Virus record (IMG/VR): IMGVR_UViG_3300038393_001982
Span: 1-52,040 of that record
DNA from: a virus
Taxonomy: Duplodnaviria > Caudoviricetes
Reading direction: 5' to 3' (one strand)
DNA: 52,040 nt
Part shown: piece after piece, positions 18,543-51,732 of the stretch
Numbering within the stretch: the stretch's first letter is position 1
How the letters are laid out: the number at the start of each line of letters is the position of its first letter
The notes under the pieces: model-generated
What the model was told of the DNA's origin: nothing
Seen by the model: the letters and a program-made list of their open reading frames with translations, nothing else
The model's database searches: none
Made by a program: the position numbers and the translations under genes

Positions 18543-19811
18543 GTGCCCAACACCGCGCTGAAGGCGGCCCGCCAGGCCGCCGGCTACACCAGTCAGCAGG
18601 CGCTCGCCGACGCCCTCCACAAGGCCGGCCGCCAGCTCGCCATGGGTGACATCGTCGTCAGCCTCCGGCAGATCCGCCGCTGGGAGTCTGACACCCCGCC
18701 ATGGCCGAACGAGGACTACCAGCGACTCCTGACGCACGTGCTGCACCAGCCCATCGAGGACCTCGGTTTTCGCGCGCCCTGGGCTCAGGGCGATGTCCGG
18801 ACTGTCCAGCCGGTACCAGCCTCGGCGCCCCCGCCAGCCGCTCCTACCGTGCTGCGCGGCCCGCTTCCCCGGCCGGCCAACCGCAGCGGCTCCCAGCCCG
18901 GCACCGTTGGCGCCGACTACGCCATAGTGACTGAGGCTCACCGCCGCCTCTACCTGTCCGTAGCCCCTGCCGCCCTCCACCGGGCCGTCGCCGAGCACGC
19001 CGCCCTCGGCACCGCTCTGTTGGGCGAGACGTCCGGCGTGGCCCGCCGCATCCTCGCCTCCGCCCTCGCCGAGACGACCCTGCTGCTGGGCCGCATCGAG
19101 TTCTTCGACCTCCGGCAGCCCGATGCCGCGGACGCCACTTTCGTCCGCGCGCTCCAGGCCGCAGGCGAGGCGGACGACAGCCTGCTTGGCGCCGCCATCC
19201 TCGCCCACAACGCATTTGTCCCGGGGTGGTCCGGCCGCCTCGATGCCGCGCGCGAGCGCATGCAGGCGGCCCGCACCTACGCCCGCCGCGCACCCGCGAG
19301 TGCCGAGGTCCTCGCCTGGCTCGATGCCGTCGAGGCCGAGTGCCTCACCCGGTGCGGTGACCACCGCGGGGCCCTGGCTCTGCTGCGGCGTGCCGAGGAC
19401 GTGCTCGCGGCCGGCGGAGACATCGCCAGCCCCGACTGGTTCACCTGGTTCTCGCCCGTGCGGCTCCACGCATTCCGCGGCAACACGGAGCTGGTGGCGG
19501 GCCTGATCCCGCAGGCCCGAACCACCCTGGCGCAGACGCTTGTCGAGCTACCCGAGACCGACGGCAAGCAGCGCGTTGTTGTGCTCGGCGACCTAGCCGC
19601 CGTCGAGGCCGCGGCCCAGCACCCGGACGAGGCCTGCGCACTGCTGGAGCAGGCCCTCGACCAGCTCACCGTCACTTGGTACGAGACCGGCATGGAGCGC
19701 GTCCGCGATGCCCGCCGGGCCCTCACCCCCTGGCAGGAGACGGCGGCCGTCCGGCGCGTGGACGACCGCCTCTACTCCTGGTCGGCGACCCTCAACTCGC
19801 TCCAGCGTTGA
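18543..19811 (+). CDS. XRE-family HTH regulator with TPR-like helical sensor domain
   Basis: LKAARQAAGYTSQQALADAL...RQIRRWES..P.WP; Ala/Leu-rich helical repeats; GGAGGA RBS. Confidence 0.85.
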   Translation: MPNTALKAARQAAGYTSQQALADALHKAGRQLAMGDIVVSLRQIRRWESDTPPWPNEDYQRLLTHVLHQPIEDLGFRAPWAQGDVRTVQPVPASAPPPAAPTVLRGPLPRPANRSGSQPGTVGADYAIVTEAHRRLYLSVAPAALHRAVAEHAALGTALLGETSGVARRILASALAETTLLLGRIEFFDLRQPDAADATFVRALQAAGEADDSLLGAAILAHNAFVPGWSGRLDAARERMQAARTYARRAPASAEVLAWLDAVEAECLTRCGDHRGALALLRRAEDVLAAGGDIASPDWFTWFSPVRLHAFRGNTELVAGLIPQARTTLAQTLVELPETDGKQRVVVLGDLAAVEAAAQHPDEACALLEQALDQLTVTWYETGMERVRDARRALTPWQETAAVRRVDDRLYSWSATLNSLQR

Positions 19812-38498: not shown

Positions 38499-39614
38499 TC
38501 AGCGGGCGGAGGAGAGCTGTTCGCGGTGGCTCTTGCGGGGCAGCCCGTCGCTCTCGGCGAGCAGGTCCCGCACCCGGCCTTGGTACTCGCGGACCTTGGC
38601 GTTCGCCGCCTTGCGCTGGTCGTCGTCCATGGCCGCGGCCGCTCGGCGCTTCCAGCTGCGGATCTGCCGTTCCAGGTACCGCTGCTGTTGGGTCTGCTCG
38701 TAGGTCGCCCGGTCCTCCTGAACGGGCGGGCGCCGGGTGATCCCGGGCAGGTACGCGCTGACCCGGTGCCGGCAGTTGGGGTGTTGCAGGCCGGCCGCGC
38801 GTGCGTCCGCCAGCGACCCGGCAATGTGCACGGTGACGGTCTGCCCGTCATCGGTGGCGTGCTGGAGCTGGACGTCGCGGGCACCCGATCCCCCGATGGA
38901 GAGGACCTTGCGTTCCCAGGGGCGGCAGAGCGGGCACTCCTCCGGGCTGTCCGAGACGACCACCAGGTTGATGCCGGCGGCCTCCAGCCGGTCCGTGTGG
39001 GCCTGCACCGCCGCCTTGCCGACCGCGGACCGGGTGGCCATCTCCGCGTAGGAGGTCATGTCCCAGGCCCGACCTGCTTTGTCGACGAATCCGGTTACGC
39101 CCTTCGTCGCGAAGCGGGCGAGGGCCCGGGCCGCGGCCTGGCGGCGGGTCTCGGCTCCCACGAGCACGGACACGGACGCCTCAGCCACGGTCTGCCGGTA
39201 CACGTCGAGGCCGACCCGTAGGACCCGCTGGTACACCGGGCCCGTGTCGGCAACGACGGCCGCGGCGAGTCGGTCGATGACTGCCGCGCCGGGCAGTGCC
39301 TCGGCCGCTGCCGCGGTTTGCCCGATCGGGAGCGCGCCGAGTTCGGCAACTGCGGCCTGCTGACCGCGCTCGTACGCCTGGGCGATGGCTTCGCGCAGGG
39401 CGCCGTCGGTATCGGTCTGGAGTCCGGCGAGGAGCTCGCGCAGTCCCTGCTGAAGGTCACCAACCGCGGCGAGCTTCCGCTCCACCCACCACGGGGCGTC
39501 GATGTCCGCGGCCAGCGCGGCGCGGAGGCGCTCCAGCAGTGCAAGTTCGGCCTGCTCGTACAGGGCGCCGACCGCGTGCGCGAGATCCTCGGCCATGTCC
39601 GGGGAGACCGGCAC
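38499..39614 (-). CDS. Phage minor capsid/head morphogenesis protein
   Basis: YAEMATR...CPLCRPWE...HPNCRH...QRYLERQIR.WK. Confidence 0.85.
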   Translation of the reverse strand: MPVSPDMAEDLAHAVGALYEQAELALLERLRAALAADIDAPWWVERKLAAVGDLQQGLRELLAGLQTDTDGALREAIAQAYERGQQAAVAELGALPIGQTAAAAEALPGAAVIDRLAAAVVADTGPVYQRVLRVGLDVYRQTVAEASVSVLVGAETRRQAAARALARFATKGVTGFVDKAGRAWDMTSYAEMATRSAVGKAAVQAHTDRLEAAGINLVVVSDSPEECPLCRPWERKVLSIGGSGARDVQLQHATDDGQTVTVHIAGSLADARAAGLQHPNCRHRVSAYLPGITRRPPVQEDRATYEQTQQQRYLERQIRSWKRRAAAAMDDDQRKAANAKVREYQGRVRDLLAESDGLPRKSHREQLSSAR

Positions 39615-39624
39615 CGTCCACCTC

Positions 39625-41145
39625 CTAGGAGACGAGGCCGGTCTGCATCGGGTCGGGCACGGCCTGGCCGGTCTCGGCGTGGATCGCCGCGACCTCAGCG
39701 CTGACGCGCTTGTCGTCCCATTCCGGGTGCATGATCCGGACCTTGGTCTCGGTTGATGCGGCCCCAGCGCGGTTCAGTACCTCGACAGTGTTCGCCAGGG
39801 ACAGGGCGTCCTCCTGGACGCCGTCCTGGAACTCGACCTGCGGGCGCTGGCGCCAGTCCGCGCCGGAGCGGTAGATGTCGGCGTCCATGGCGAGCAGCGC
39901 CTGGATTGCGTCGGCGAGTCCCGGCCGCCACGCAAGGATCTTGTTCCCGCGGGTGGTCATGGACCGCTGCCCCTTGGCCGTGACCTCGGTGGCGGTGATT
40001 GCGACCTCGCCCTCACCGCCGAACGTCTGCTCGCTGTAGCCGGCCGAGGAGACGATCCGCTTCACCAGCTCGGCGCAGGTGTCCTTGTGCTCGGCCACCC
40101 TGATATCGAACTGGATCAACGTCAGCGGGGACTCGCCGGGCTTGGTGAGCATGTCGAGCCCGGAATAGACCTCCTGCTCGGCGGACCAGATGGGCCCGCG
40201 GCCGACGCCGGCGGACTGCAACATGGCGTTTGGGACGGCGACGCGGGCCTTGGCGAGCCGCAGGTCGCGCATCCACGAGGCGTGTGTCTGGTCGAGGTCG
40301 TCCATCAGGTTCTCGACGCCGTCGAGGTCGGAGCGGCCCAGGTTGGACAGCAACGGCAGAGACCGCCATCGGCGGGTCGGCTGGTTGGGAATGTAGGCGA
40401 CGCCAAGCCGCGGGTAGCCGGTGAGGATCTGCCCCTGGTCGTCGACCCGGGTGGCGAGCGCCGCCGTCTCGTCCAGGTCTTCCAGCGGCACCGGCCGGCC
40501 GAGCTTGTCCTTGGTGCCCTGGTAGAGGCCGTGCAGGATGCGGCCGGGTTCATGCCGTTCCAGGTGTCGCCAGACCTGCCCGTCCTCCTCCTCGACGACC
40601 CGCCAGAACGTGACCGCAGACAGGCGCCCCCAGGTGAATTCGGGGATGGCCCGGTCGGCGTGGACGGTGTCCAGCCAAGGTTCGTCGGCGAGCGTGGTGT
40701 CGGCGACGGGCCGCAGGTACACCCCACCGTGGGCGGCGTCCAGCTCGGCGGCACGGAGGAGGGTGGCGTGGAAGCGGTCACCGCAGACCGCGTCAAGGCG
40801 GGCTTGCGTCTTCTCGGAGTCGACGACGGTGATCCTGGGCGGCTCGGAGAAGAGCAGGTTCGCCGAGGCGGAGCAGATGTCCCCGGCGATGGGGATGTGG
40901 GTGTGGGAGCGGAGCTCACCGGGCGCGGGCGGGGTGCCCCACCACCAGCGGGAGATCCGGCCGACGAGCCCGCCCCGGTACTGGCTGGTTTTCGGGTCGG
41001 GCATGCCGAACTGGCTGCCGCCTCCGTAGAGAGCGGTGAGCTTGTCCGGGTCGCCGCCCCACCAGGTGTCCCACGCGTCGATCGCCTGGAGTGCCGGCCG
41101 CAGGGGCTTTGGCGGCCAGGGGATGCTGTGGTCGGGCAGTGGCAC
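39625..41145 (-). CDS. Portal protein
   Basis: SANLLFSEPP...LERHEPG...YIPN...IRV.EH...TATEV; after terminase. Confidence 0.9.
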   Translation of the reverse strand: MPLPDHSIPWPPKPLRPALQAIDAWDTWWGGDPDKLTALYGGGSQFGMPDPKTSQYRGGLVGRISRWWWGTPPAPGELRSHTHIPIAGDICSASANLLFSEPPRITVVDSEKTQARLDAVCGDRFHATLLRAAELDAAHGGVYLRPVADTTLADEPWLDTVHADRAIPEFTWGRLSAVTFWRVVEEEDGQVWRHLERHEPGRILHGLYQGTKDKLGRPVPLEDLDETAALATRVDDQGQILTGYPRLGVAYIPNQPTRRWRSLPLLSNLGRSDLDGVENLMDDLDQTHASWMRDLRLAKARVAVPNAMLQSAGVGRGPIWSAEQEVYSGLDMLTKPGESPLTLIQFDIRVAEHKDTCAELVKRIVSSAGYSEQTFGGEGEVAITATEVTAKGQRSMTTRGNKILAWRPGLADAIQALLAMDADIYRSGADWRQRPQVEFQDGVQEDALSLANTVEVLNRAGAASTETKVRIMHPEWDDKRVSAEVAAIHAETGQAVPDPMQTGLVS

Positions 41146-41165
41146 CTCATCACCGCCTTCCCGGG

Positions 41166-42455
41166 TTAGGCCGCCATGTCGAGGGCGGTGATGAGGTGGG
41201 GGCGCCAGAGCGCTTCGGTGGTGACCACGGCGTACCGGCCGCCGTCGAGGGAGTGGTCGGCGACCTTGATCGGCTTGTCCTTGCCGTCCTCGGTGGCTTT
41301 CGGGTCCCAGGAGTAGCCGGGTGCCTCACGGATGAAGCCCTCGCACCGGTCGCTGACCAGCAGTTGGCCCTCGGCAAGGAGGGTGGCCAGCAGGGTGATG
41401 CCGCGGGAGACGTCGTTGTCGGCTTCCTGCGCGGTCAGCCCGTCGTGGTGGAGCTGGGTGCGGAAGCTGGCAGCGGCCGGGTCAACGACCACCCACTCCG
41501 GAAGCTGGGAGGCGGTCTGGGGGGCGTGGGCGGTGGTGTGCAGCCAGTCGCGCATGCTCGCCGACAGCTGGCCGTCGGTGAGCCGGTTCTGGGAGTGCTG
41601 GGGGTCGTGACGCCACTCGTCCATGAGGTACAGGCGGCGGTCGGCGCCGAGGCCGAGGAGCAGGCCGGTGCTGGGGTTGGTGGTGCCGTAGTCGACGCCG
41701 AGGGCGAGGACGCGCTGCATGGCCGGCATCTGGTGCCATGGGATGACGTGCCGGTCGGGGTCCCACATGTCGAAGATCGCGCCCTCGGCGGCGACCCACT
41801 CGCCGAGGATGAACCGCCGGTACCACAGGCCGGTGTAGGTGCGGCGGTACCGTTCCTTGACGGACTCGGCGAGGGCCGGGTTGTCGTCGAGCTGGAAGTG
41901 CCAGACCCGCCAGTCCGTCAGCTGCCCGAGCCGGTCGAGGAACCGGCGCCGGACCCAGTGCGCGGGGCTGTCCGGGTTGGTGGTGCAGAAGATCTGCGAG
42001 CCCTCGACCGAGCAGCGGCCGAGGAGCTGCTGGAAGAAGTCCTCCGAGATGACGGTCAACTCGTCGACGTACGCGCCCGCGCAGGTCAGACCGCGCAAGA
42101 CCTTCTCGGCTTTGGCGTCGGAGGCGCCGAGGACGTGGATCGTCCGGCCGAGGATGGTCGCTGTGGACGCGCCGTTGGTGTACCGGGTCAGCCGGGCGAG
42201 GGGCCCCATGATGTCGGGGTCCATGAGCGGCCCGAAGACGTTCCGGTTCAGCGAGTCGCGGGTGCGGCCGACGACCACCAGCTCGCCGCCGCGGGGCGCC
42301 GTGGCAACGTAGATCAGCCAGCGCAGCAGGGAGACGATCGTCTTGCCGCTGCGGATGCTGCCCTCGGCGAGGTTGACGAACGCGGTGCTGTTGACGACGT
42401 AGTCGAGCTGCTTGCGGCCGAGGCCGAAGCGGCCGGCGAGGTCATGGAGCATCAC
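41166..42455 (-). CDS. terL: Terminase large subunit (PBSX-like)
   Basis: EGSIRSGKT Walker A, YVDE Walker B, TTNP, GVDYG, DH..DGGRY. Confidence 0.95.
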   Translation of the reverse strand: MMLHDLAGRFGLGRKQLDYVVNSTAFVNLAEGSIRSGKTIVSLLRWLIYVATAPRGGELVVVGRTRDSLNRNVFGPLMDPDIMGPLARLTRYTNGASTATILGRTIHVLGASDAKAEKVLRGLTCAGAYVDELTVISEDFFQQLLGRCSVEGSQIFCTTNPDSPAHWVRRRFLDRLGQLTDWRVWHFQLDDNPALAESVKERYRRTYTGLWYRRFILGEWVAAEGAIFDMWDPDRHVIPWHQMPAMQRVLALGVDYGTTNPSTGLLLGLGADRRLYLMDEWRHDPQHSQNRLTDGQLSASMRDWLHTTAHAPQTASQLPEWVVVDPAAASFRTQLHHDGLTAQEADNDVSRGITLLATLLAEGQLLVSDRCEGFIREAPGYSWDPKATEDGKDKPIKVADHSLDGGRYAVVTTEALWRPHLITALDMAA

Positions 42456-44922: not shown

Positions 44923-45927
44923 TCATGCGGCGGTGGTGTGGCTGACGATGATCGTCCGGGCGGGGTTGTCGGGGTCGGTGCGCATGACGAACCCCTCTCG
45001 GGTGGACCACTCTCCGGTGTTGTTGGCGTTGGTGTTGGCGCTCTGACCTGCGCCAACGTTGGCAACAACGCGGGGGGCGGGGGCGCTCTCGGCCGGGGAG
45101 GGGAGTGCGGGCACGTCCTGGTGGTGGACGCCGGGCCCGTTGCCGTCCGGCGTACGGACCCCTGCGCGGACCGGGATGCGGGCCTCTGCGAGGAGGGTCC
45201 GGACAGCCTTGGTGGAGGGCTCCCAGCCGGGGTGGGAGGCGGCCAGATCGGCGGCCAGCCGGGTGAGCAGAACGGAGGTCTCGTCGGCCGCCAGAGAGGC
45301 CGTCAGCCGGTGGGCCTCGGCGGGGGTCGGAACGGCGGCCTCGGGCTCCTCCTGGTCGACCTCGTCGGCGTCGTCCGCGGGGGCGTCGCCGGTCTCCTTG
45401 GCGGGGGCCTGCTTGGTGCTCTCCGGGGTGGTGGTGTTGCCGAGAATCAGGGCGGCGATCACCCACAGGGTGAGGCCGCTGCTGATGGCGACTCCGGCGT
45501 AGTGCCGGACCACGGGAACGCCGGCCAGCAGGGTCGCGGAGACGACGGCGCATCCGGCGGCGACCAGGGCAGGATGGGTGGGCCGCTCGCCGAGGTCCTC
45601 CAGAGCCTTGGCGCGCTGCTCGGGGTCCTTGATCTGCTTCGCCTTGGCGCGCCGCTCCTTCCACGCCGCGAGCGTGTCGGCGTGCTCGGTCTTGGCGTCG
45701 ACGTGGCGGGTCCTGATCGGGGCGAGCATGCGGCGGTTGCCCTGGCGGAGCGCGGCGAGCGAGAGGCCGCCGAGGTAGGGGTGGACGGGCCGCTCCCCCT
45801 TGAGGGCTTCGAGCGCGGTGGCGCGCTCCTTGGGGTCCTTGATCTGGCGGGCCTTGGTGCGGCACTCGTTCCACGCGGCCAGGGCTTCGGCGTGCAGGGT
45901 GAGGGCGTCGGAGAGGGGGTTGGTCAT
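44923..45927 (-). CDS. Membrane protein with duplicated N-terminal module and putative C-terminal wHTH
   Basis: Two ~39-aa repeats, two TM helices, VLLTRLAADL...VRTLLAEARIPVRAGVR. Confidence 0.7.
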   Translation of the reverse strand: MTNPLSDALTLHAEALAAWNECRTKARQIKDPKERATALEALKGERPVHPYLGGLSLAALRQGNRRMLAPIRTRHVDAKTEHADTLAAWKERRAKAKQIKDPEQRAKALEDLGERPTHPALVAAGCAVVSATLLAGVPVVRHYAGVAISSGLTLWVIAALILGNTTTPESTKQAPAKETGDAPADDADEVDQEEPEAAVPTPAEAHRLTASLAADETSVLLTRLAADLAASHPGWEPSTKAVRTLLAEARIPVRAGVRTPDGNGPGVHHQDVPALPSPAESAPAPRVVANVGAGQSANTNANNTGEWSTREGFVMRTDPDNPARTIIVSHTTAA

Positions 45928-45928
45928 C

Positions 45929-46339
45929 TCAGGCTCCGATCAGGCCGTGGAGGAACGAGCCGACCACGGTGAACGGCAGGGCGAGGATCGAGCCGGAGGC
46001 GAGGCAGGCGGCGGGGAGGGTACCGCCGACGATCACGTCTTTCCACACGCGGGGCTTGGTGCCGAACAGGATGATCACGAGGATGGCGGCGGTGGCTCCG
46101 GCGCCCGCGTTGAACTGCTGGTTCATGGCGGCGGTGAGCGAGTCGCCCACGACCTTCGGCGCCTCGAAGGCTTGGCCGGCGCCCTGGGCGAACAGGCCGA
46201 ACAGGAGCATCCACCAGGCGGTGTGGTGGTCCTTGTGCTGCTCGGCGAGGGTGCCCTTGCCCCGGTGCCCGACGAGCAGCCACACCATGATTACGAGGCA
46301 CACGCCGGTGGCGGTGAACGGTCCGAGCAAGGAGGTCAT
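45929..46339 (-). CDS. Integral membrane protein (about 4 TM)
   Basis: Highly hydrophobic 136 aa; GGAG RBS. Confidence 0.75.
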   Translation of the reverse strand: MTSLLGPFTATGVCLVIMVWLLVGHRGKGTLAEQHKDHHTAWWMLLFGLFAQGAGQAFEAPKVVGDSLTAAMNQQFNAGAGATAAILVIILFGTKPRVWKDVIVGGTLPAACLASGSILALPFTVVGSFLHGLIGA

Positions 46340-46351
46340 GGTGACTCCAGG

Positions 46352-47359
46352 TCAGTAGATGTGGAGGGCGGAGAGGAGGGGGGTGATGCCGGTGGCGACG
46401 GCGATGCCGGAGGCGACCGGGATCCGGGCGAGGAGCAGGAAGAAGAGGGGGCGGGCGCCGCGGACCTCGCTCACGCGCAGGCGGCCCCGGTCCCGCAGGT
46501 GGGTGTCGAGTCCCCAGCCGAAGGTGGCGAGGATCAGGCCGACGAACGGGCCGCCGGGCGTGATGATCTGCACGAGCCCGGTGGCGTAGCCGCCGACCGC
46601 AGAGATCGCGGTGAGCACGCACCAGCGCCGGAACCGGCGGACGCGGTCAGAGGTGCCGGCGGCGCGGGCCGCGCGGCGGCGCTGGCGCCGGGCCCGGGTC
46701 GCAGCCTCCCGCTTGTCGGCGAGCCGTTGCTGGCGGTGCCGCCGGGCCCGCTGCTCCGGGGTCTCCCCGGCCGCGGCCAGCTCGGCGTCCTCCCGGGCGC
46801 GGCGCCGCTGCTTGTCGATCTCCCGCTCGGTCTCCAGGCGGGCGGCCCGCTCCTCGGGTGTCTCGCTGATCCGGGACGCGAGCAGGTCGACCATGCCGAC
46901 CAGGTCGTCTCGGCGGTGGCCGGGGTTGAGGGCGTCCTCGACGCGGTGGCGCTCGGCGCGCTGTGCGGTGCTCTCCCCCGCTGCGGCGAACGCGGCGTCA
47001 CGCTCGGCGCGCTGAGCGGCTATCAGGGTCTCGTGCTCGACCTGTTCGCGGGCCGATCGCTGGGCCTCGGTCTCGGTGAGGAGCTGGCCAATCTGCGAGG
47101 CGATCGCCGTGGCCTGCTCGGCGAAGATCTCGCGAGCCGGGGCCCAGAACGCCTGAGCGGCCTCCTCAATCGAGGGCGGTCCGGCGGGCCCGACCGGGAT
47201 CGGGGTGTGGACGGTCGGGTCCGGCTGGCCCGGGGTGCGGGGGCCGTCCTTGCGCCACCACTCGGCGGGCTCGGCGTCGGGGACGTGCCCGGTCTTGGGC
47301 TTGACCGTGGCCGGCCCGGCGGTGGGCGGGTAGGTCGGTGGGGGCGGGATGGTGGTCAC
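46352..47359 (-). CDS. Coiled-coil membrane protein
   Basis: Pro-rich N-terminus, repeated ET(P)EQRA/E helices, 2-3 C-terminal TM helices. Confidence 0.7.
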   Translation of the reverse strand: MTTIPPPPTYPPTAGPATVKPKTGHVPDAEPAEWWRKDGPRTPGQPDPTVHTPIPVGPAGPPSIEEAAQAFWAPAREIFAEQATAIASQIGQLLTETEAQRSAREQVEHETLIAAQRAERDAAFAAAGESTAQRAERHRVEDALNPGHRRDDLVGMVDLLASRISETPEERAARLETEREIDKQRRRAREDAELAAAGETPEQRARRHRQQRLADKREAATRARRQRRRAARAAGTSDRVRRFRRWCVLTAISAVGGYATGLVQIITPGGPFVGLILATFGWGLDTHLRDRGRLRVSEVRGARPLFFLLLARIPVASGIAVATGITPLLSALHIY

Positions 47360-47520
47360 CGCTCCCCCTTCCGGGGGCCGCGGCGGTCGCCGGGGTGGAG
47401 CCGGTCGGCGGTGCCGGCGTCGATCTTGCGGATCTCGCGTTCGCGGCGGGCCCGCTCGCGCGGGGTACGGCCGGTCGGGCTGGGGGTGGTCTGTCCGGTG
47501 AGCTTGGACCAGAGGCCCAT
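47356..47520 (-). CDS. Small basic protein
   Basis: MGLWSKLTG...RERARRERE; coupled to neighbours. Confidence 0.55.
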   Translation of the reverse strand: MGLWSKLTGQTTPSPTGRTPRERARREREIRKIDAGTADRLHPGDRRGPRKGER

Positions 47521-47522
47521 GG

Positions 47523-47675
47523 CTATCTCCAGGTGATGACGAGGATGAGGCAGGTGGCCCAGAGGGCGGTGGTGCCGGCGAGGCGGAGTGCTTGGCGGAC
47601 CGGGTGGTCGGCGGCGCGGTACAGGCCGGCGTAAGCGAGGGCGGCGGGGACCGCCCACCACAGGACGGCGGCCAT
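47523..47675 (-). CDS. Small 2-TM protein (not in the ORF track)
   Basis: MAAVLWWAVPAALAYAGLY...LAGTTALWATCLILVITWR. Confidence 0.6.
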   Translation of the reverse strand: MAAVLWWAVPAALAYAGLYRAADHPVRQALRLAGTTALWATCLILVITWR

Positions 47676-47678
47676 GGG

Positions 47679-48740
47679 CTAGTCGCCGACGATGGCGCGG
47701 CGTACCTCGGTCGCCTCGCGACGGGAGAGCCCCAACTGGAGCTGCAAGGTGCCGATGGTGACGGGCCGGCCGGAGCGCCCTTTGAGGGCCTCGCGGTTGA
47801 GGCGTCGGGCGGCGGCCAGTAGCTGGGGCCTGGTCATGGTGGCGGGGTCCGGGGTTACCACCGAGGTGACCACTTCGCGTGCCAGCCGCTTGGCAGGCAC
47901 GGTGGTCATCTCGCGGTCACCGTGGTGGTCATGCAGGTGGTCATCCTGCGGCGTCGAGGTGACCAGCCCGGCTGCCACCAACTGGGCGGTGAGCTGGTCG
48001 TCTGTGGCGTCGGGCATGATGCGGCGTGCCTCGGCGAGAGCGGTGTCGTAGTCGCCGTGGGTCGGCTCAGCGGCGGGCAGCTCGTAGGCGGCGTACATGT
48101 CCGCGGTGGCGCCCTCGACTCGGGCGAGCTCGCGCTGGACGGCGGCGGTCGCGAGGCGGGCGTGCGCGGCGGAGAACTGGGCTTCGACCCACTGCTGTGA
48201 GCGGTCGTCGAGTTCAACGCTGAAGCTGTGGAGTGCCATGGTCCACAGGCCCTTGGCGAGGGCGGAGACGAGGGCGCCGATGATGCCGACGGCGACGCCG
48301 GCGGCGATGGAGTCGTGGCCGACTCGGAGGATGCCGTGCGTGCAGACGGCGGCCATGGCGATCACGAGGGCGATGTAGCCAGCGCGGCGCGGGAGCGTGG
48401 CCCTGCGGCGGTCGTAGCGGCTCAGCCACTCCAGGGCCATGCAGGAGACCCAGCCGAGGTCGAAGACGGTGGCGGCGCCGTAGGCGATGGCGGGGTGGAC
48501 GGCCTCTGCGAGGAGGTCGCCGATGCTGGCGGTGGACCAGGCGATCGCGCCCGTGACGGTGAGGGCGGTTGCTCCGGTGACGGCGCCGCGGACGAGGCGG
48601 TCCCAGTCGCGGGGCGGAACGGGGACGGCGGTGGCGTACCGCTCGGTGACCATCTGGGTGATGCCGTTGATGGTGTGCGGGATCTCCCGCTCCTGCTGTA
48701 CCAGCCGGGTGCGGCGGAAGGTACCGTTCTGGTGGGCCAT
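47679..48740 (-). CDS. spdB: SpdB-like plasmid spread protein (4 TM, coiled coil, C-terminal wHTH)
   Basis: PHT..G...VPVPPRDWDR...WSTASIG.LL...AY..A..FD..W..CM..EWL.RYD...AHG...VS.LAKG.W...LDDRSQQWV matches my recollection of pIJ101 SpdB. Confidence 0.75.
   Translation of the reverse strand: MAHQNGTFRRTRLVQQEREIPHTINGITQMVTERYATAVPVPPRDWDRLVRGAVTGATALTVTGAIAWSTASIGDLLAEAVHPAIAYGAATVFDLGWVSCMALEWLSRYDRRRATLPRRAGYIALVIAMAAVCTHGILRVGHDSIAAGVAVGIIGALVSALAKGLWTMALHSFSVELDDRSQQWVEAQFSAAHARLATAAVQRELARVEGATADMYAAYELPAAEPTHGDYDTALAEARRIMPDATDDQLTAQLVAAGLVTSTPQDDHLHDHHGDREMTTVPAKRLAREVVTSVVTPDPATMTRPQLLAAARRLNREALKGRSGRPVTIGTLQLQLGLSRREATEVRRAIVGD
47855..47944. repeat. Phased GGTGGTCA(T) repeats inside spdB
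   Basis: Direct copies at 47901, 47912 (imperfect), 47924, 47936; inverted copies at 47855, 47867. Confidence 0.7.
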
Positions 48741-48818
48741 GGGAGTTGCGTCTCCGGTGGTCAAGGGCCTGGGCTGGGGCTGCGATCCCCACGCCTGGGC
48801 CCGTTTTATTGGGGGCGG

Positions 48819-48995
48819 TCAGAGGTGCTGGTCGATGAGGTAGCGGAGGACGGCGGAGCGGCTGGTGCCGTCGGCGGTGGCCTGTTGGAGTTTGGTGAGC
48901 TGGGGTCCGTAGAGGGTGATGCCGCCGATGACCTTCTTGGTCTGGGGCGGGGCGGGCATGCCGGGCTGGGCCGGCTTCTCGTCGGCGGTGTGCAT
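48819..48995 (-). CDS. Ribbon-helix-helix protein
   Basis: IGGITLYGPQLTKLQQATADGTSRSAVLRYLIDQHL. Confidence 0.7.
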   Translation of the reverse strand: MHTADEKPAQPGMPAPPQTKKVIGGITLYGPQLTKLQQATADGTSRSAVLRYLIDQHL

Positions 48996-49092
48996 ATGCA
49001 CAAGGTAGCCGATGTGCATATGCACAGCAAGCCCTTCGTGCATATGCATGTCGATTGGCTGAACTGCACAGGTGGTCGACGTATGCATATGC
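48991..49092. promoter_or_regulatory. TGCATATGCA palindrome array
   Basis: Copies at 48991, 49015, 49039 (24-bp period) and 49084 (9/10 match). Confidence 0.85.
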
Positions 49093-49110
49093 GCGCCCTA
49101 CCCTGGCGCC

Positions 49111-49311
49111 ATGGTCAGTCGCGCGAAGGATAGTCACACCACGAACAGAGTCGTCCGCATCGGCGATGACGACTGGGAGGACCTCGGCACCCGGGCCGGC
49201 ACGCGCAACCGGGCGCAGGTCATCCGGGACCTGGTCGCCTGGTACCTCCGCCGACCGGGGGCGAAGCTGCCGGAGCGCCCGCCGGCAAGGACGGAGCCGG
49301 CGGGCGACTGA
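49111..49311 (+). CDS. Ribbon-helix-helix protein (probably leaderless)
   Basis: TNRVVRIGDDDWEDL...RAQVIRDLVAWYL; TACCCT 6 nt before ATG. Confidence 0.75.
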   Translation: MVSRAKDSHTTNRVVRIGDDDWEDLGTRAGTRNRAQVIRDLVAWYLRRPGAKLPERPPARTEPAGD

Positions 49312-49314
49312 CGG

Positions 49315-49950
49315 TCAGGCTGCGGCGAGTTCGCTGAGGGTCTGTTCGACGCGGTCGGCGTACTCGTCGGTGGTGAGGACGGCGCGACAGTCGGGGGCGG
49401 AGCATTCGCGCATCCCGTCGGGGCGGACCGTGACGGTCATGAGGTGGCAGCGGGGGCAGACGTGCCGGCGGGCGGGTCCGGTCTGGAGGGGCCCGCCGCA
49501 TGCTCGGTTGAGGTGGCTGTGCAGACGGCCGATCTCGTCGGCGAGGTCCCGGGCGTACGCGCGGCTGGCGGCGAAGTCGAGGTGCAGCAGCAGGGTCTTC
49601 ACCGCGCGGGAGACGGTCACCTCTCGGTCGTGGCCGGCCGGACGGACCCAGGCCGACCAGTCGTTGGCGCGCTGCCGGTCGTCGATGACGGCGCGGGCCC
49701 ACTCCGCAAGGAGGTCGAGGCCGGGGGTGTCGTCCTGGTCGCCGTGTTCGTCGTGGACGGCGGGCGCGGTGGGGCCGATCAGGGAGAGCACGTCGACGCG
49801 GCACGGGAGGGGTGCGGTGCGGGTGGCGCCGGAGACGCGGGCTCCGCGGCGGCCGGAGCCGGGCAGCAGGGCGAGGTGCGTGAGGGTGATGAGCTCGGGG
49901 AGCTGCTGGAGCTGGGTGCGGAGGCGGTCGAGGTGCGGGGCGGGGAGCAT
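49315..49950 (-). CDS. Zn-finger protein at the end of the early operon (possible late-gene regulator)
   Basis: APLPCRVDVL...CPRC...CSAPDC. Confidence 0.65.
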   Translation of the reverse strand: MLPAPHLDRLRTQLQQLPELITLTHLALLPGSGRRGARVSGATRTAPLPCRVDVLSLIGPTAPAVHDEHGDQDDTPGLDLLAEWARAVIDDRQRANDWSAWVRPAGHDREVTVSRAVKTLLLHLDFAASRAYARDLADEIGRLHSHLNRACGGPLQTGPARRHVCPRCHLMTVTVRPDGMRECSAPDCRAVLTTDEYADRVEQTLSELAAA

Positions 49951-50260: not shown

Positions 50261-50389
50261 TCAGGGCTGGTAGTCGGTGATGTCGGGGATCACGTCGACG
50301 ACGGGGCGGGGTGGCGGGTCGAGGGGCCAGTCCTCGCTGTCGTCGGTGAACAGGAGGGCCGGGTCCCACTCGTCGTCAGGGCCGGTCAT
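50261..50389 (-). CDS. Small acidic protein
   Basis: MTGPDDEWDPALLF...; ATGA coupling. Confidence 0.45.
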   Translation of the reverse strand: MTGPDDEWDPALLFTDDSEDWPLDPPPRPVVDVIPDITDYQP

Positions 50390-50841
50390 GGCTGGGCTTC
50401 GGGGGTCGGGCAGCAGCTGGCGCAGGGGGTGGTTGAAGCGAGGGCTTCGCGGATCTCCATCCGGAGTGCCGCGGCGGTGTTGGACGCACATCCCTGATAG
50501 CGATGGAGCACCGTCTCGGCGGCGGCGATGCGGGCCTCGGCCTGCTCAGCGCGGGCGGTCGTCTCGCAGGAGCCGAGGTCGACTGGCCAGCCGTCCGTAA
50601 GCCATGCGGGGGCGACGCCGTGGTCGGTCCAGCCGCAGTGGCGCTGGCCGATCTCGTAGCCGTGCCGGGCCCACATGCGGGCTTCGTCGCGCTGTTCGGT
50701 GAGCTGGGCGACCAGGCGCCGGAGCTGGCCGAGTTCGTTCTCGGCGGCGCGCCGGTCGGCCTCGGCCTTCGTGGCGCGGATGGTGGCCTCGTCCCGCATC
50801 CGGGTGAGTTGCTGCTGGTAGGTCTCCTGTTCGGGGATCAC
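50386..50841 (-). CDS. Coiled-coil hypothetical protein
   Basis: EARMWARHGYEIGQRHCGWTDHGVAPAWL. Confidence 0.6.
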   Translation of the reverse strand: MIPEQETYQQQLTRMRDEATIRATKAEADRRAAENELGQLRRLVAQLTEQRDEARMWARHGYEIGQRHCGWTDHGVAPAWLTDGWPVDLGSCETTARAEQAEARIAAAETVLHRYQGCASNTAAALRMEIREALASTTPCASCCPTPEAQP

Positions 50842-51170
50842 GCGGCTCTCCTTTGGCGTCGGGCGGTGGCTCTGCGGGCGGCGCTCTTGAGGCGCATGGC
50901 TTCACGGCAGTCGTCGCAGGCGGGTTCGTGCTGGCGTTGGTGGCGGCGGTAGCCGGCGATGGTGCCGCAGCCGATACGGGTGAGGAGTCGGCGGCGGTGG
51001 CCTATGTCGACTGCGTTCGCGGCGTTGGTGGCGCCGATCTTGGTGTAGATCCGTGCAAGGTGGGTTTTGACGGTGTCCTCGGTGAGGTAGAGCTGGCGGC
51101 CAATCTCGGCGTGGGTGCGGCCTGCTGCGATGAGCTGGAGGATCTGGCGCTGCCGGTCGGTGAGGGTCAC
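50838..51170 (-). CDS. LuxR-type HTH fused to a Cys/His motif
   Basis: LTDRQRQILQLIAAGRTHAEIGRQLYLTEDTVKTHL; CGTIAGYRRH...ACDDC. Confidence 0.8.
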   Translation of the reverse strand: MTLTDRQRQILQLIAAGRTHAEIGRQLYLTEDTVKTHLARIYTKIGATNAANAVDIGHRRRLLTRIGCGTIAGYRRHQRQHEPACDDCREAMRLKSAARRATARRQRRAA

Positions 51171-51355
51171 TGGTGCTCCTTCAGTTGCCATTCGAGGACG
51201 GCGATCTGGTCGGCGACGTAGGTGTCGGTGATGGGCGGGGGCACGTAGGGCCGGGGCCCGGGGCGGGGCTGCTGGACGCGGGAGCCGAGGATGACGGCGG
51301 TCCACAGCAGGGCGAGGAGGAGGGCGGGCGCGGCTCCGACGAGGGCGGTCGTCAC
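51167..51355 (-). CDS. Small membrane protein
   Basis: ALLLALLWTAVIL TM helix. Confidence 0.5.
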   Translation of the reverse strand: MTTALVGAAPALLLALLWTAVILGSRVQQPRPGPRPYVPPPITDTYVADQIAVLEWQLKEHQ

Positions 51356-51732
51356 TGCGCAGCCTGCAAGTTGATCGGCTCCCAGATCGCCGTGATCGTC
51401 CGAGCGCGCTCGTTCAGCCATTTCCGAACGGCCGGCTCGTCGGCCTCGGTGACGACGCACGAGGTAGACCGCAGAATCGCCTTGCGCTGAAGAACCCAGA
51501 AGACCTGGAGCACGTCTGCGGGCACTTCTTGGTCAGGCTCGTAGTCGTCGGGGTCGAAGCGCTGCCAGTCCCAGCGGAACACGAGGTTGAGGTCGGGGTC
51601 CTCGGCGCCCCAGTCCTGGTAGAAGTCGGTCCAGGACTCGTAGGACGTGTGGAGTCCTTCACCGGCACGGGCGTAGTAGTTGCCCTGGGTGCAGTAGTAC
51701 GGGTGGTCAATCTCCCAGAGGTGGCGGGTCAC
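51352..51732 (-). CDS. Hypothetical protein (5' part also at 1-311)
   Basis: HLWEIDHPYYC..GNY...DLNLVFRWDW...QRK. Confidence 0.7.
   Translation of the reverse strand: MTRHLWEIDHPYYCTQGNYYARAGEGLHTSYESWTDFYQDWGAEDPDLNLVFRWDWQRFDPDDYEPDQEVPADVLQVFWVLQRKAILRSTSCVVTEADEPAVRKWLNERARTITAIWEPINLQAAQ

Follow-up and report, generated by a model that had tools for sequence, protein, structure and literature searches.

A repeat cluster in the gene of a predicted membrane-anchored helix-turn-helix protein of an actinophage, a candidate cis site for the protein's own C-terminus

Introduction

Can a phage membrane protein carry, in the codons of its own linker, the DNA site that its C-terminal domain reads? 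The question is raised by a 353-residue protein encoded on the minus strand of a 52-kb actinophage genome (IMG/VR record IMGVR_UViG_3300038393_001982; Duplodnaviria, Caudoviricetes). The stretch analyzed here, called the window, is a complete virus record (52,040 bp, 71 % G+C, direct terminal repeats). A sequence-only reading of the window had named the protein SpdB, had seen an FtsK-gamma-like winged helix-turn-helix (HTH) at its C-terminus, and had pointed to a phased array of 8-mers in the DNA just before the part coding for that domain, which it took for a clt-like site through which the protein might tether phage DNA to the membrane or septum. We found that the array is unique on the genome, that its sites are kept at the nucleotide level, and that it occurs together with the HTH. 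With a probability of about 0.45, we propose that the cytoplasmic HTH of the membrane protein binds the TGACC(A/G)C cluster in its own gene and holds the phage genome at the membrane.

Results

A cluster of short repeats in the linker-coding DNA

On the plus strand the 8-mer GGTGGTCA occurs exactly at 47901, 47924 and 47936, and the segment 47912-47919 (CGCGGTCA) matches it at 6 of 8 positions. The four direct sites start 11, 12 and 12 nt apart. Copies in the opposite orientation, each matching at 7 of 8 positions, stand at 47855 (TTACCACC) and 47867 (TGACCACT), and an additional inverted copy, GGTGACCAG, lies at about 47958. Except for this last copy, the positions and the 11-12 bp period are those given by the sequence-only reading, which also listed single copies at 47351 and 48756. 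In total, four direct and three inverted sites lie within about 115 bp (Table 1). The array encodes residues 266-295 (QDDHLHDHHGDREMTTV...EVVTSVVT), and the HTH helices (residues 304-350) follow next. Its placement in linker-coding DNA ahead of the C-terminal domain, also proposed earlier, agrees with the AlphaFold2 (AF2) model, in which the predicted local distance difference test score (pLDDT) is below 50 at residues 262-289.

Over the 52 kb there are 12 exact copies of GGTGGTCA (2.29 +/- 1.55 expected), a number reached by none of 100 shuffles. Eleven of the 12 are on the plus strand, which is antisense to most genes, and codons for (M/V)-T-T and D-H in these minus-strand genes could account for the bias. 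Apart from the copies already named, the exact copies are scattered singles, at 281, 613, 25710, 28968, 39952 and 51702 on the plus strand and at 19358 on the minus strand. Whether TGACCAC, TGACC(A/G)C or GGT(G/C)ACC was counted, the densest 120-bp segment of the 52 kb always fell within 47820-47980. Segments of 150 bp held four to five TGACC(A/G)C sites at this locus and never more than two elsewhere, which makes it a cluster of short direct and inverted repeats that is unique on the element.

The single copies at 47351 and 48756 look incidental. The first is the GTG-ACC-ACC start (M-T-T) of the next open reading frame (ORF). The second lies 16 nt upstream of the ATG at 48740; this upstream copy is present in the window and at the related locus L097, and absent from loci L046, L090 and L091. 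A role of the two singles as operators was dropped.

Amino-acid repeats alone do not explain the array

The array lies in coding DNA with a period of 12 nt, that is four codons, as a tandem duplication would leave it, and the protein alignment shows conservation of the peptides D-D-H, D-R, M-T-T and V-V-T-S. The repeats could then have no function at the DNA level and be a by-product of peptide repeats (DDH/HDH, VVTS), of 12-nt slippage and of a recent recombination of linker plus HTH between genes, and the module is clearly shuffled among different N-terminal domains. The codons make this account rather improbable. Read as codons, the direct copies are GAT-GAC-CAC, CAT-GAC-CAC, GGT-GAC-CGC and ATG-ACC-ACC (DDH, HDH, GDR and MTT), one motif in two frames, and the inverted copies are coded GTG-GTC-ACC and GTG-GTA-ACC. 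The motif thus stands in three coding contexts (D-H; xTG-ACC-ACC; and V-V-T on the other strand) and in both orientations, and when the copies are aligned by motif orientation the flanks are alike on both strands, C..CGAG(G/A)TGACC(A/G)(C/G)C. A single motif in three frames and on both strands is unlike the product of a peptide repeat.

The leading T of the first three direct copies comes from the rare codons GAT, CAT and GGT; in the genes of the window T-ending codons make up 4.4 %, GAT 8 % of the Asp codons and CAT 5 % of the His codons. The pattern recurs at L046, L047, L049, L088, L090 and L091, in clades with only 46-48 % protein identity, where the codon before GAC is GAT, CAT, AAT, GGT or TCT. 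At L046, L047, L049, L090 and L091 the HTH-proximal copy takes the form of the near-palindrome CGAGGTGACCACCTCG. At L096, where the membrane domain is a different one, the motif is written GTG-ACC-ACC, CTT-GAC-CAC and GTG-GTC-ACC.

We then have the result of synonymous resampling, in which the amino acids were fixed and the codons redrawn from local usage. Nine of the 24 sampled loci (L106, L108, L111-L116 and L123) fall outside the strict HTH-core peptide pattern and were excluded from the counts, and the weak matches L117-L122 were left out as well. TGACC(A/G)C exceeded the resampling expectation at nine of nine loci, with P from < 0.0002 to 0.025. Pooled over the 17 loci with the helix motif SRR(E/D)A, it was observed 63 times against 16.8 expected; the corresponding figures are 64 and 17.0 for TGACCA, 48 and 10.6 for TGACCAC (z = 12.6), 60 and 20.1 for GGTGACC, and 45 and 7.2 for CGAGGTG. 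A T-ending codon precedes GAC-C(A/G)N in 26 of 34 cases in the family linkers; in the remaining parts of these ORFs it does so in 4 of 45 cases, and in other genes of the window in 3 of 24. T-ending codons are not enriched overall (45/952), yet 29 of the 45 precede GAC, and general pausing at rare codons was rejected for this reason. Val-Val is written GTG GTC in 28 of 36 linker pairs and in 10 of 26 pairs outside the linkers. The commonest spacing between sites is 12 nt (38 of 96 intervals). Elsewhere in the module synonymous sites differ freely, as a comparison of the HTH codons of the window with those of L046 showed. Taken together, the resampling and the bias for T-ending codons indicate that amino-acid repeats alone do not explain the array; the opposite outcome is the one that the sequence-only reading had named as fatal to its own proposal.

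A predicted membrane anchor with a C-terminal HTH

The gene was taken to start at the ATG at 48740. The program-made ORF spans 47679-48764 (minus), and a TTG at 48764 would add eight residues; the ATG is considered the real start because P0001, a 100 %-identical entry of our protein collection, has 353 residues and begins MAHQNGT. The G+C content at third codon positions is 0.90.

The full-length AF2 model, built with 19 full-length relatives, has a mean pLDDT of 68.5. It shows an N-terminal beta-hairpin at residues 11-40, four long helices at residues 45-78, 83-106, 111-139 and 142-173 that are predicted to span the membrane, and a further long helix at residues 179-219. Hydropathy places hydrophobic stretches at residues 119-170. 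Because the N-terminus and the loop at residues 105-121 are rich in Lys and Arg, the positive-inside rule puts both ends of the protein in the cytoplasm. The prediction is thus of a polytopic protein with four transmembrane (TM) helices and a cytoplasmic C-terminal domain. The linker between the two parts varies in length and sequence among homologues.

The C-terminus is confidently predicted to be a tri-helical HTH: the three helices form a bundle, a short turn joins helices 2 and 3, and the recognition helix, probably SRREATEVRRAI, is basic. In the full model the HTH has a pLDDT of 83-91; when the last 60 residues were folded alone (AF2, 9 sequences), the pLDDT was 85.4, with helices at residues 11-27, 36-43 and 47-58 of the construct. 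Residues 301-353 contain 11 Lys or Arg and 4 Asp or Glu. The earlier assignment as an FtsK-gamma-like winged HTH therefore stands for the HTH and falls for FtsK-gamma. There is no wing, because helix 3 ends at residue 350 and the protein ends three residues later, and AF2 predicted no beta strand in the domain. With the last 73 residues, hmmscan against Pfam-A at E <= 10 returned no family, FtsK_gamma included, although very weak matches can be lost in the filters of HMMER; among PDB sequences at E <= 10, a profile of the domain listed no FtsK, SpoIIIE or TraB chain. The Foldseek comparison against the PDB, which had been suggested as a check, gave no match at E <= 0.001, and its best matches (E 0.38-1.1) were sigma region 4 (0.38), LexA, PefI and similar generic HTH domains, with no FtsK-gamma among the 46 matches listed (ranks 1-50).

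Nor did the name SpdB hold. The family of the protein is phrog_35187 (function unknown), which matches residues 18-257 with an E-value of 2.7e-68. No Pfam family matched at E <= 0.01 or at E <= 10, DUF2637 included, in a copy of Pfam that did not contain PF27080, a family carried by some of the homologues that NCBI names 'protein transporter Sec31'. In a profile-profile comparison (hhalign), 25 phrog_35187-type members and five DUF2637 proteins gave a probability of 7 %; the positive controls, the proteins at L096 and L127, matched PF10935 (DUF2637). We take SpdB2 of plasmid pSVH1 to be a DUF2637 protein.

There are 320 representative homologues at E <= 0.001, and in most of those listed the match stops well short of the C-terminus of the query. 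By tblastn the only phages found were SF3 and TurkishDelight, matched in the membrane domain and unannotated there, and the plasmids searched gave three weak matches. Two small plasmids carry homologues of the membrane domain near large P-loop proteins; the FtsK match there was below the cut-off (E 0.0013).

Other C-terminal domains follow the membrane domain in many relatives. In P0081, P0095, P0097, P0099, P0117 and P0270 it is a T5orf172/MUG113 (GIY-YIG-like) domain. Most homologues of the membrane domain (L004-L089, for example L004, L014 and L021) end in a different small domain with the consensus GPMT(I/V)x followed by DAVRTA..SGI.DPDAVLRYVRKVADANAK..TV.RYLR, which is preceded by a Pro/Asp-rich linker with PDxxPD repeats. 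The homologue at L002 (1747-2715, Protofrankia plasmid pFSYMDG01) has yet another C-terminal helical domain, and in its linker-coding DNA repeated GACGTCC/GGGACGTC strings can be seen by eye.

The array accompanies the HTH module

Of 401 Streptomycetaceae genomes sampled, 26 carry the HTH module, and a metagenome scan with the HTH alignment gave two loci only. Among 80 distinct homologues of the membrane domain, 76 have other C-termini, with 0.5 TGACC(A/G)C sites per kb in the DNA of their tails, and four have the HTH, with 8.5 per kb. Segments of 150 bp with at least three sites are confined, in the window, in G405 (complete) and in G403, to the DNA 100-300 bp upstream of the HTH core. The HTH module is also found on the DUF2637 proteins P0267-P0269, P0271 and L096, on P0270 (MUG113/GIY-YIG-type), and on P0272-P0274, which have no Pfam domain on record. 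L096, with a DUF2637 membrane domain and the same HTH, has six sites where 1.8 are expected; eight further group-A loci in the same count have an unclassified N-terminal part. As judged by sequence comparison, the HTH module stands on at least two apparently unrelated membrane domains, and these counts support the view that the array travels with the HTH module.

The motif also differs with the recognition helix, in line with a co-variation check that had been suggested earlier. At the 17 SRR(E/D)A loci (group A) the base before GACC(A/G)C is T in 63 of 80 cases, and at the six SRRRA loci (group B) it is C in 23 of 28. The SRRRA loci have 3 TGACC(A/G)C against 2.5 expected, 15 GGGTAC against 2.2, and 23 CGACC(A/G)C against 12.9. 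Because groups A and B are essentially two clades, this co-variation amounts to about one evolutionary change. The SRRRA subfamily (L103, L105, L107, L110, L125 and L126, from G026, G071, G077 and G056) has long linkers rich in DDH, DDQ and VVAPVV peptides and in GGGTAC motifs.

The array may be a real cis site that is read by something other than the protein's own HTH, such as a TraB/FtsK-type translocase of a co-resident plasmid or actinomycete integrative and conjugative element (AICE), for which it would be a true clt used in mobilisation of the phage or prophage, another phage DNA-binding protein, for which the 211-residue phrog_1568 protein (Table 1) is a candidate, or the response regulator PhoP of the host. 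Known clt loci consist of clustered direct repeats of 7-9 bp that TraB or TraA reads; in plasmid pWTY27 the DC1 repeat, TGACACC, occurs four times (PMC3583192). At L103 the HTH gene has an FtsK-like ORF about 1 kb away, and the linkers of the DUF2637 genes at L127 and L128, the former beside an FtsK/SpoIIIE gene, show GGGACACC/GGTGTCCC by eye. As for PhoP, the plus-strand units GGTCA(T/C)(C/G) are one base away from GTTCACC, the core of the Streptomyces PHO box, which occurs as direct 11-nt units (PMC4415409); the period here is 12 nt, not 11, and the second position is G, not T. We consider another reader unlikely. The array co-occurs with the HTH module and not with TraB, the motif changes along with the recognition helix, and homologues with other C-termini lack the array although they would encounter the same host and plasmids. 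Indeed, PF01580 (the FtsK domain) has no match in the complete record, nor in four related virus records; the HTH is not attached to an FtsK/SpoIIIE motor, and by this search the phage has no TraB beside which its gene could stand in a tra/spd cluster.

The genes at L127 (5773-6558) and L128 (1349-2290), on small Streptomyces plasmids, encode DUF2637 proteins with a different HTH that weakly matches HTH_23. Several copies of the repeats mentioned above stand in their linker-coding DNA and are close to the clt repeat TGACACC of pWTY27; they may be the clt of these plasmids or a second example of the same principle. The L127 gene directly follows its FtsK/SpoIIIE gene. On the 7-kb plasmid p7 a DUF2637 gene stands after an FtsK/SpoIIIE gene, in the classic tra-spd arrangement. 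Since the HTH module is shared with DUF2637 proteins and the gene order on p7 is of this kind, the phage protein possibly works like a Spd protein, which does not make it an SpdB.

Gene neighborhood and transcription

The gene lies between the regulatory or early genes and the terminase, portal and capsid genes (Table 1). A row of predicted membrane or coiled-coil proteins (44923-47675, minus) stands between it and the packaging genes, and Pfam gave no match among the scanned proteins of this row. Genes for RecT-like, RusA-like and methyltransferase proteins are found further along the same minus strand. Just upstream of the operon that holds the gene is the pair of an Arc-like repressor ORF and the 211-residue protein, and the region 49072-49950 may be a regulatory switch.

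With this gene order, the HTH could bind the array and yet act mainly as a membrane-bound autoregulator that blocks or times read-through from the early region toward the membrane-protein and packaging genes downstream. A scan of 47300-49400 for terminator-like and promoter-like sites found none, and the near-palindrome next to the HTH-coding part of related genes resembles an operator. On the other side, an operator needs fewer than the seven or eight sites that stand here in both orientations over some 115 bp, conservation does not extend to the copy ahead of the start codon, and the fusion of the HTH to at least two unrelated polytopic membrane domains points to the anchor as the common requirement. 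We regard a mainly regulatory role as quite unlikely. A reading of the locus as an RNA element or terminator found no support, for the promoter and terminator scans were empty and Rfam at E <= 1 gave nothing in 47300-48900.

Table 1. Coordinates of the array, the gene that contains it and the neighboring genes in the window
Feature	Position	Strand	Details
Gene for the membrane protein with C-terminal HTH	47679..48740	minus	353 aa, ATG start at 48740
Conserved N-terminal part, residues ~18-257	47970..48689	minus	PHROG match and AF2
Disordered linker, residues 262-289	47874..47957	minus	AF2, pLDDT < 50
Predicted three-helix HTH, helices 304-320, 329-336, 340-350	47691..47831	minus	AF2, conservation
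Direct array, four sites, core TGACC(A/G)C	47901..47944		core as read on the minus strand; plus strand reads GGTGGTCAT, CGCGGTCAC, GGTGGTCAT, GGTGGTCAT
Two opposite-orientation sites	47855..47874		plus strand reads TTACCACC, GAGG, TGACCACT; encode E-V-V-T-S-V-V-T
Third opposite-orientation site, CGAGGTGACCAGCCC	47955..47969		copy of the CGAGGTGACCAC site at 47862
Predicted membrane/coiled-coil-type protein	47523-47675	minus	50 aa, directly downstream
Conserved small basic ORF	ends 47356	minus	starts MGLWSKLTG; downstream row
Protein of the downstream row	46352-47359	minus	335 aa
Protein of the downstream row	45929-46339	minus	136 aa
Protein of the downstream row	44923-45927	minus	334 aa, phrog_34550
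Terminase, portal and minor-capsid genes	38499-42455	minus
Arc-like repressor ORF	49072-49311	plus	phrog_6506, 6e-05
'DNA binding protein'	49315-49950	minus	211 aa, phrog_1467/phrog_1568
Regulatory/early genes	50386-51732		sigma/WhiB-like PHROG matches

Discussion

We propose that the predicted three-helix HTH, facing the cytoplasm, most likely binds the four direct and three inverted sites in the linker-coding DNA of its own gene. With the membrane domain fixed in the bilayer and the HTH on a disordered linker of about 40 residues, several copies of the protein would hold a single place of the phage genome at the cytoplasmic membrane, as a self-contained cassette of tether and site with no translocase motor. 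The tether may serve to position or segregate replicating or prophage DNA in hyphae or to help it spread between compartments, or the protein may regulate its own gene through an intragenic roadblock in front of the late genes. As the phage has no FtsK or TraB, no motor is at hand and any role in spreading would need functions of the host.

The closest parallel that we found for a site within the gene of its own binder is SpdA2 of the Streptomyces plasmid pIJ101. According to Thoma et al. (2014), SpdA2 binds the sps palindromes within spdA2, where they are visible as SRDD/E peptide repeats; the site is repeated two to three times, site and gene always occur together, and synonymous recoding of sps, the decisive test, abolished SpdA2 binding; a mild effect on segregational stability was seen (PMC4170104). 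The phage locus resembles this system in that a repeated site stands in the gene of its (here putative) binder, appears as a peptide repeat and stays associated with the gene on a mobile element, and sps, CGTCACGTGACG, shares the half-sites GTGAC/GTCAC with GGTGACC/GGTCACC of the phage array. The two differ in that SpdA, as described there, is a soluble protein of 117-163 residues with an N-terminal DNA-binding region and a zinc-finger match, and is known from plasmids and not from phages, whereas the phage protein is a membrane protein of 353 residues with a C-terminal HTH; and sps is a 12-bp palindrome, whereas the phage array consists of 7-8-mers in both orientations with a 12-nt period.

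The TraB/clt systems of pSVH1 and pWTY27 offer a second likeness. Membrane-anchored TraB reads direct repeats of 7-9 bp through a C-terminal HTH-type domain (PMC4447253, PMC3583192), and the clt repeats are located within or next to coding sequence of the transfer region, as with the four DC1 copies of pWTY27 (PMC3583192). TraB is described as an FtsK/SpoIIIE ATPase with a winged HTH, and the phage protein has no ATPase, no wing and no similarity to FtsK-gamma. SpdB2 of pSVH1 is described as a four-TM oligomer with an N-terminal coiled coil that binds double-stranded DNA non-specifically; SpdB2 homologues occur on actinophages, for which the authors suggested help in the spread of phage DNA (PMC4447253). 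The C-terminal HTH module of the phage protein also occurs on DUF2637 proteins, and on p7 a DUF2637 gene occupies the spdB position after a traB-like gene. The phage membrane domain itself is of the phrog_35187 type and has no detectable relation to DUF2637.

Among phage proteins, lambda O binds iterons in the linker-coding middle of its own gene (ori-lambda), and it is soluble. The membrane-anchored p16.7 of phi29 holds replicating phage DNA at the membrane through a C-terminal helical domain, with no known sequence specificity. The first resembles the present locus in the place of the site and the second in the combination of a membrane anchor with a C-terminal helical domain. With a confidently predicted HTH, repeats kept at the nucleotide level, their association with the HTH module and no TraB or FtsK match in the phage, it is reasonable to infer a clt-like or sps-like cis site that is read by the C-terminus of the protein itself.

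Several points weigh against a membrane tether that reads its own array. As the HTH has no significant structural neighbor (best Foldseek E = 0.38), the case for DNA binding is drawn from the fold type and the charge. The loci are related, L046, L090 and L091 being close to one another, and the co-variation counts for roughly a single event. The group-A locus L100 has no TGACC(A/G)C where 0.7 is expected. V-V-T next to the HTH and the D-H dipeptides are also kept as peptides and could serve the protein. In G026 the FtsK-like ORF near the L103 HTH gene encodes 640 residues, and G406 has a weak FtsK match; the ORF near L103 suggests an AICE or plasmid context, and at plasmid-like or AICE-like loci with a TraB-like gene nearby another reader is possible. 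SpdB2 of pSVH1 is reported to bind double-stranded DNA without specificity (PMC4447253).

A broader reading, which we put forward tentatively and consider somewhat doubtful, is that the HTH and its cognate array in the upstream linker codons form a portable cassette of actinomycete phages, plasmids and integrative elements. Carried by phrog_35187-type and DUF2637/SpdB-like domains, the cassette would anchor DNA at the hyphal membrane without a TraB-type motor, as a membrane-bound centromere or spread determinant.

A membrane-anchored HTH with putative site specificity, whose site is written into the codons of its own linker, in phages that lack TraB, would be a new combination. No description of the array was found in the open-access literature searched, and for SpdB-like genes of actinophages there have only been guesses at a role (PMC4447253). 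Little is understood of how phage or plasmid DNA takes up its place and moves in the compartmented hyphae of Streptomyces, and the locus bears on this question. A domain of 60 residues and a DNA fragment of about 115 bp are simple material for testing site recognition. The analysis also illustrates that a DNA site can leave its footprint as seeming peptide motifs in a disordered linker, which is relevant to the annotation of genes now called 'protein transporter Sec31'. If the portable cassette is real, it would explain what SpdB-like genes do in phages, and the conservation of the linker peptides would largely be a shadow of selection at the DNA level.

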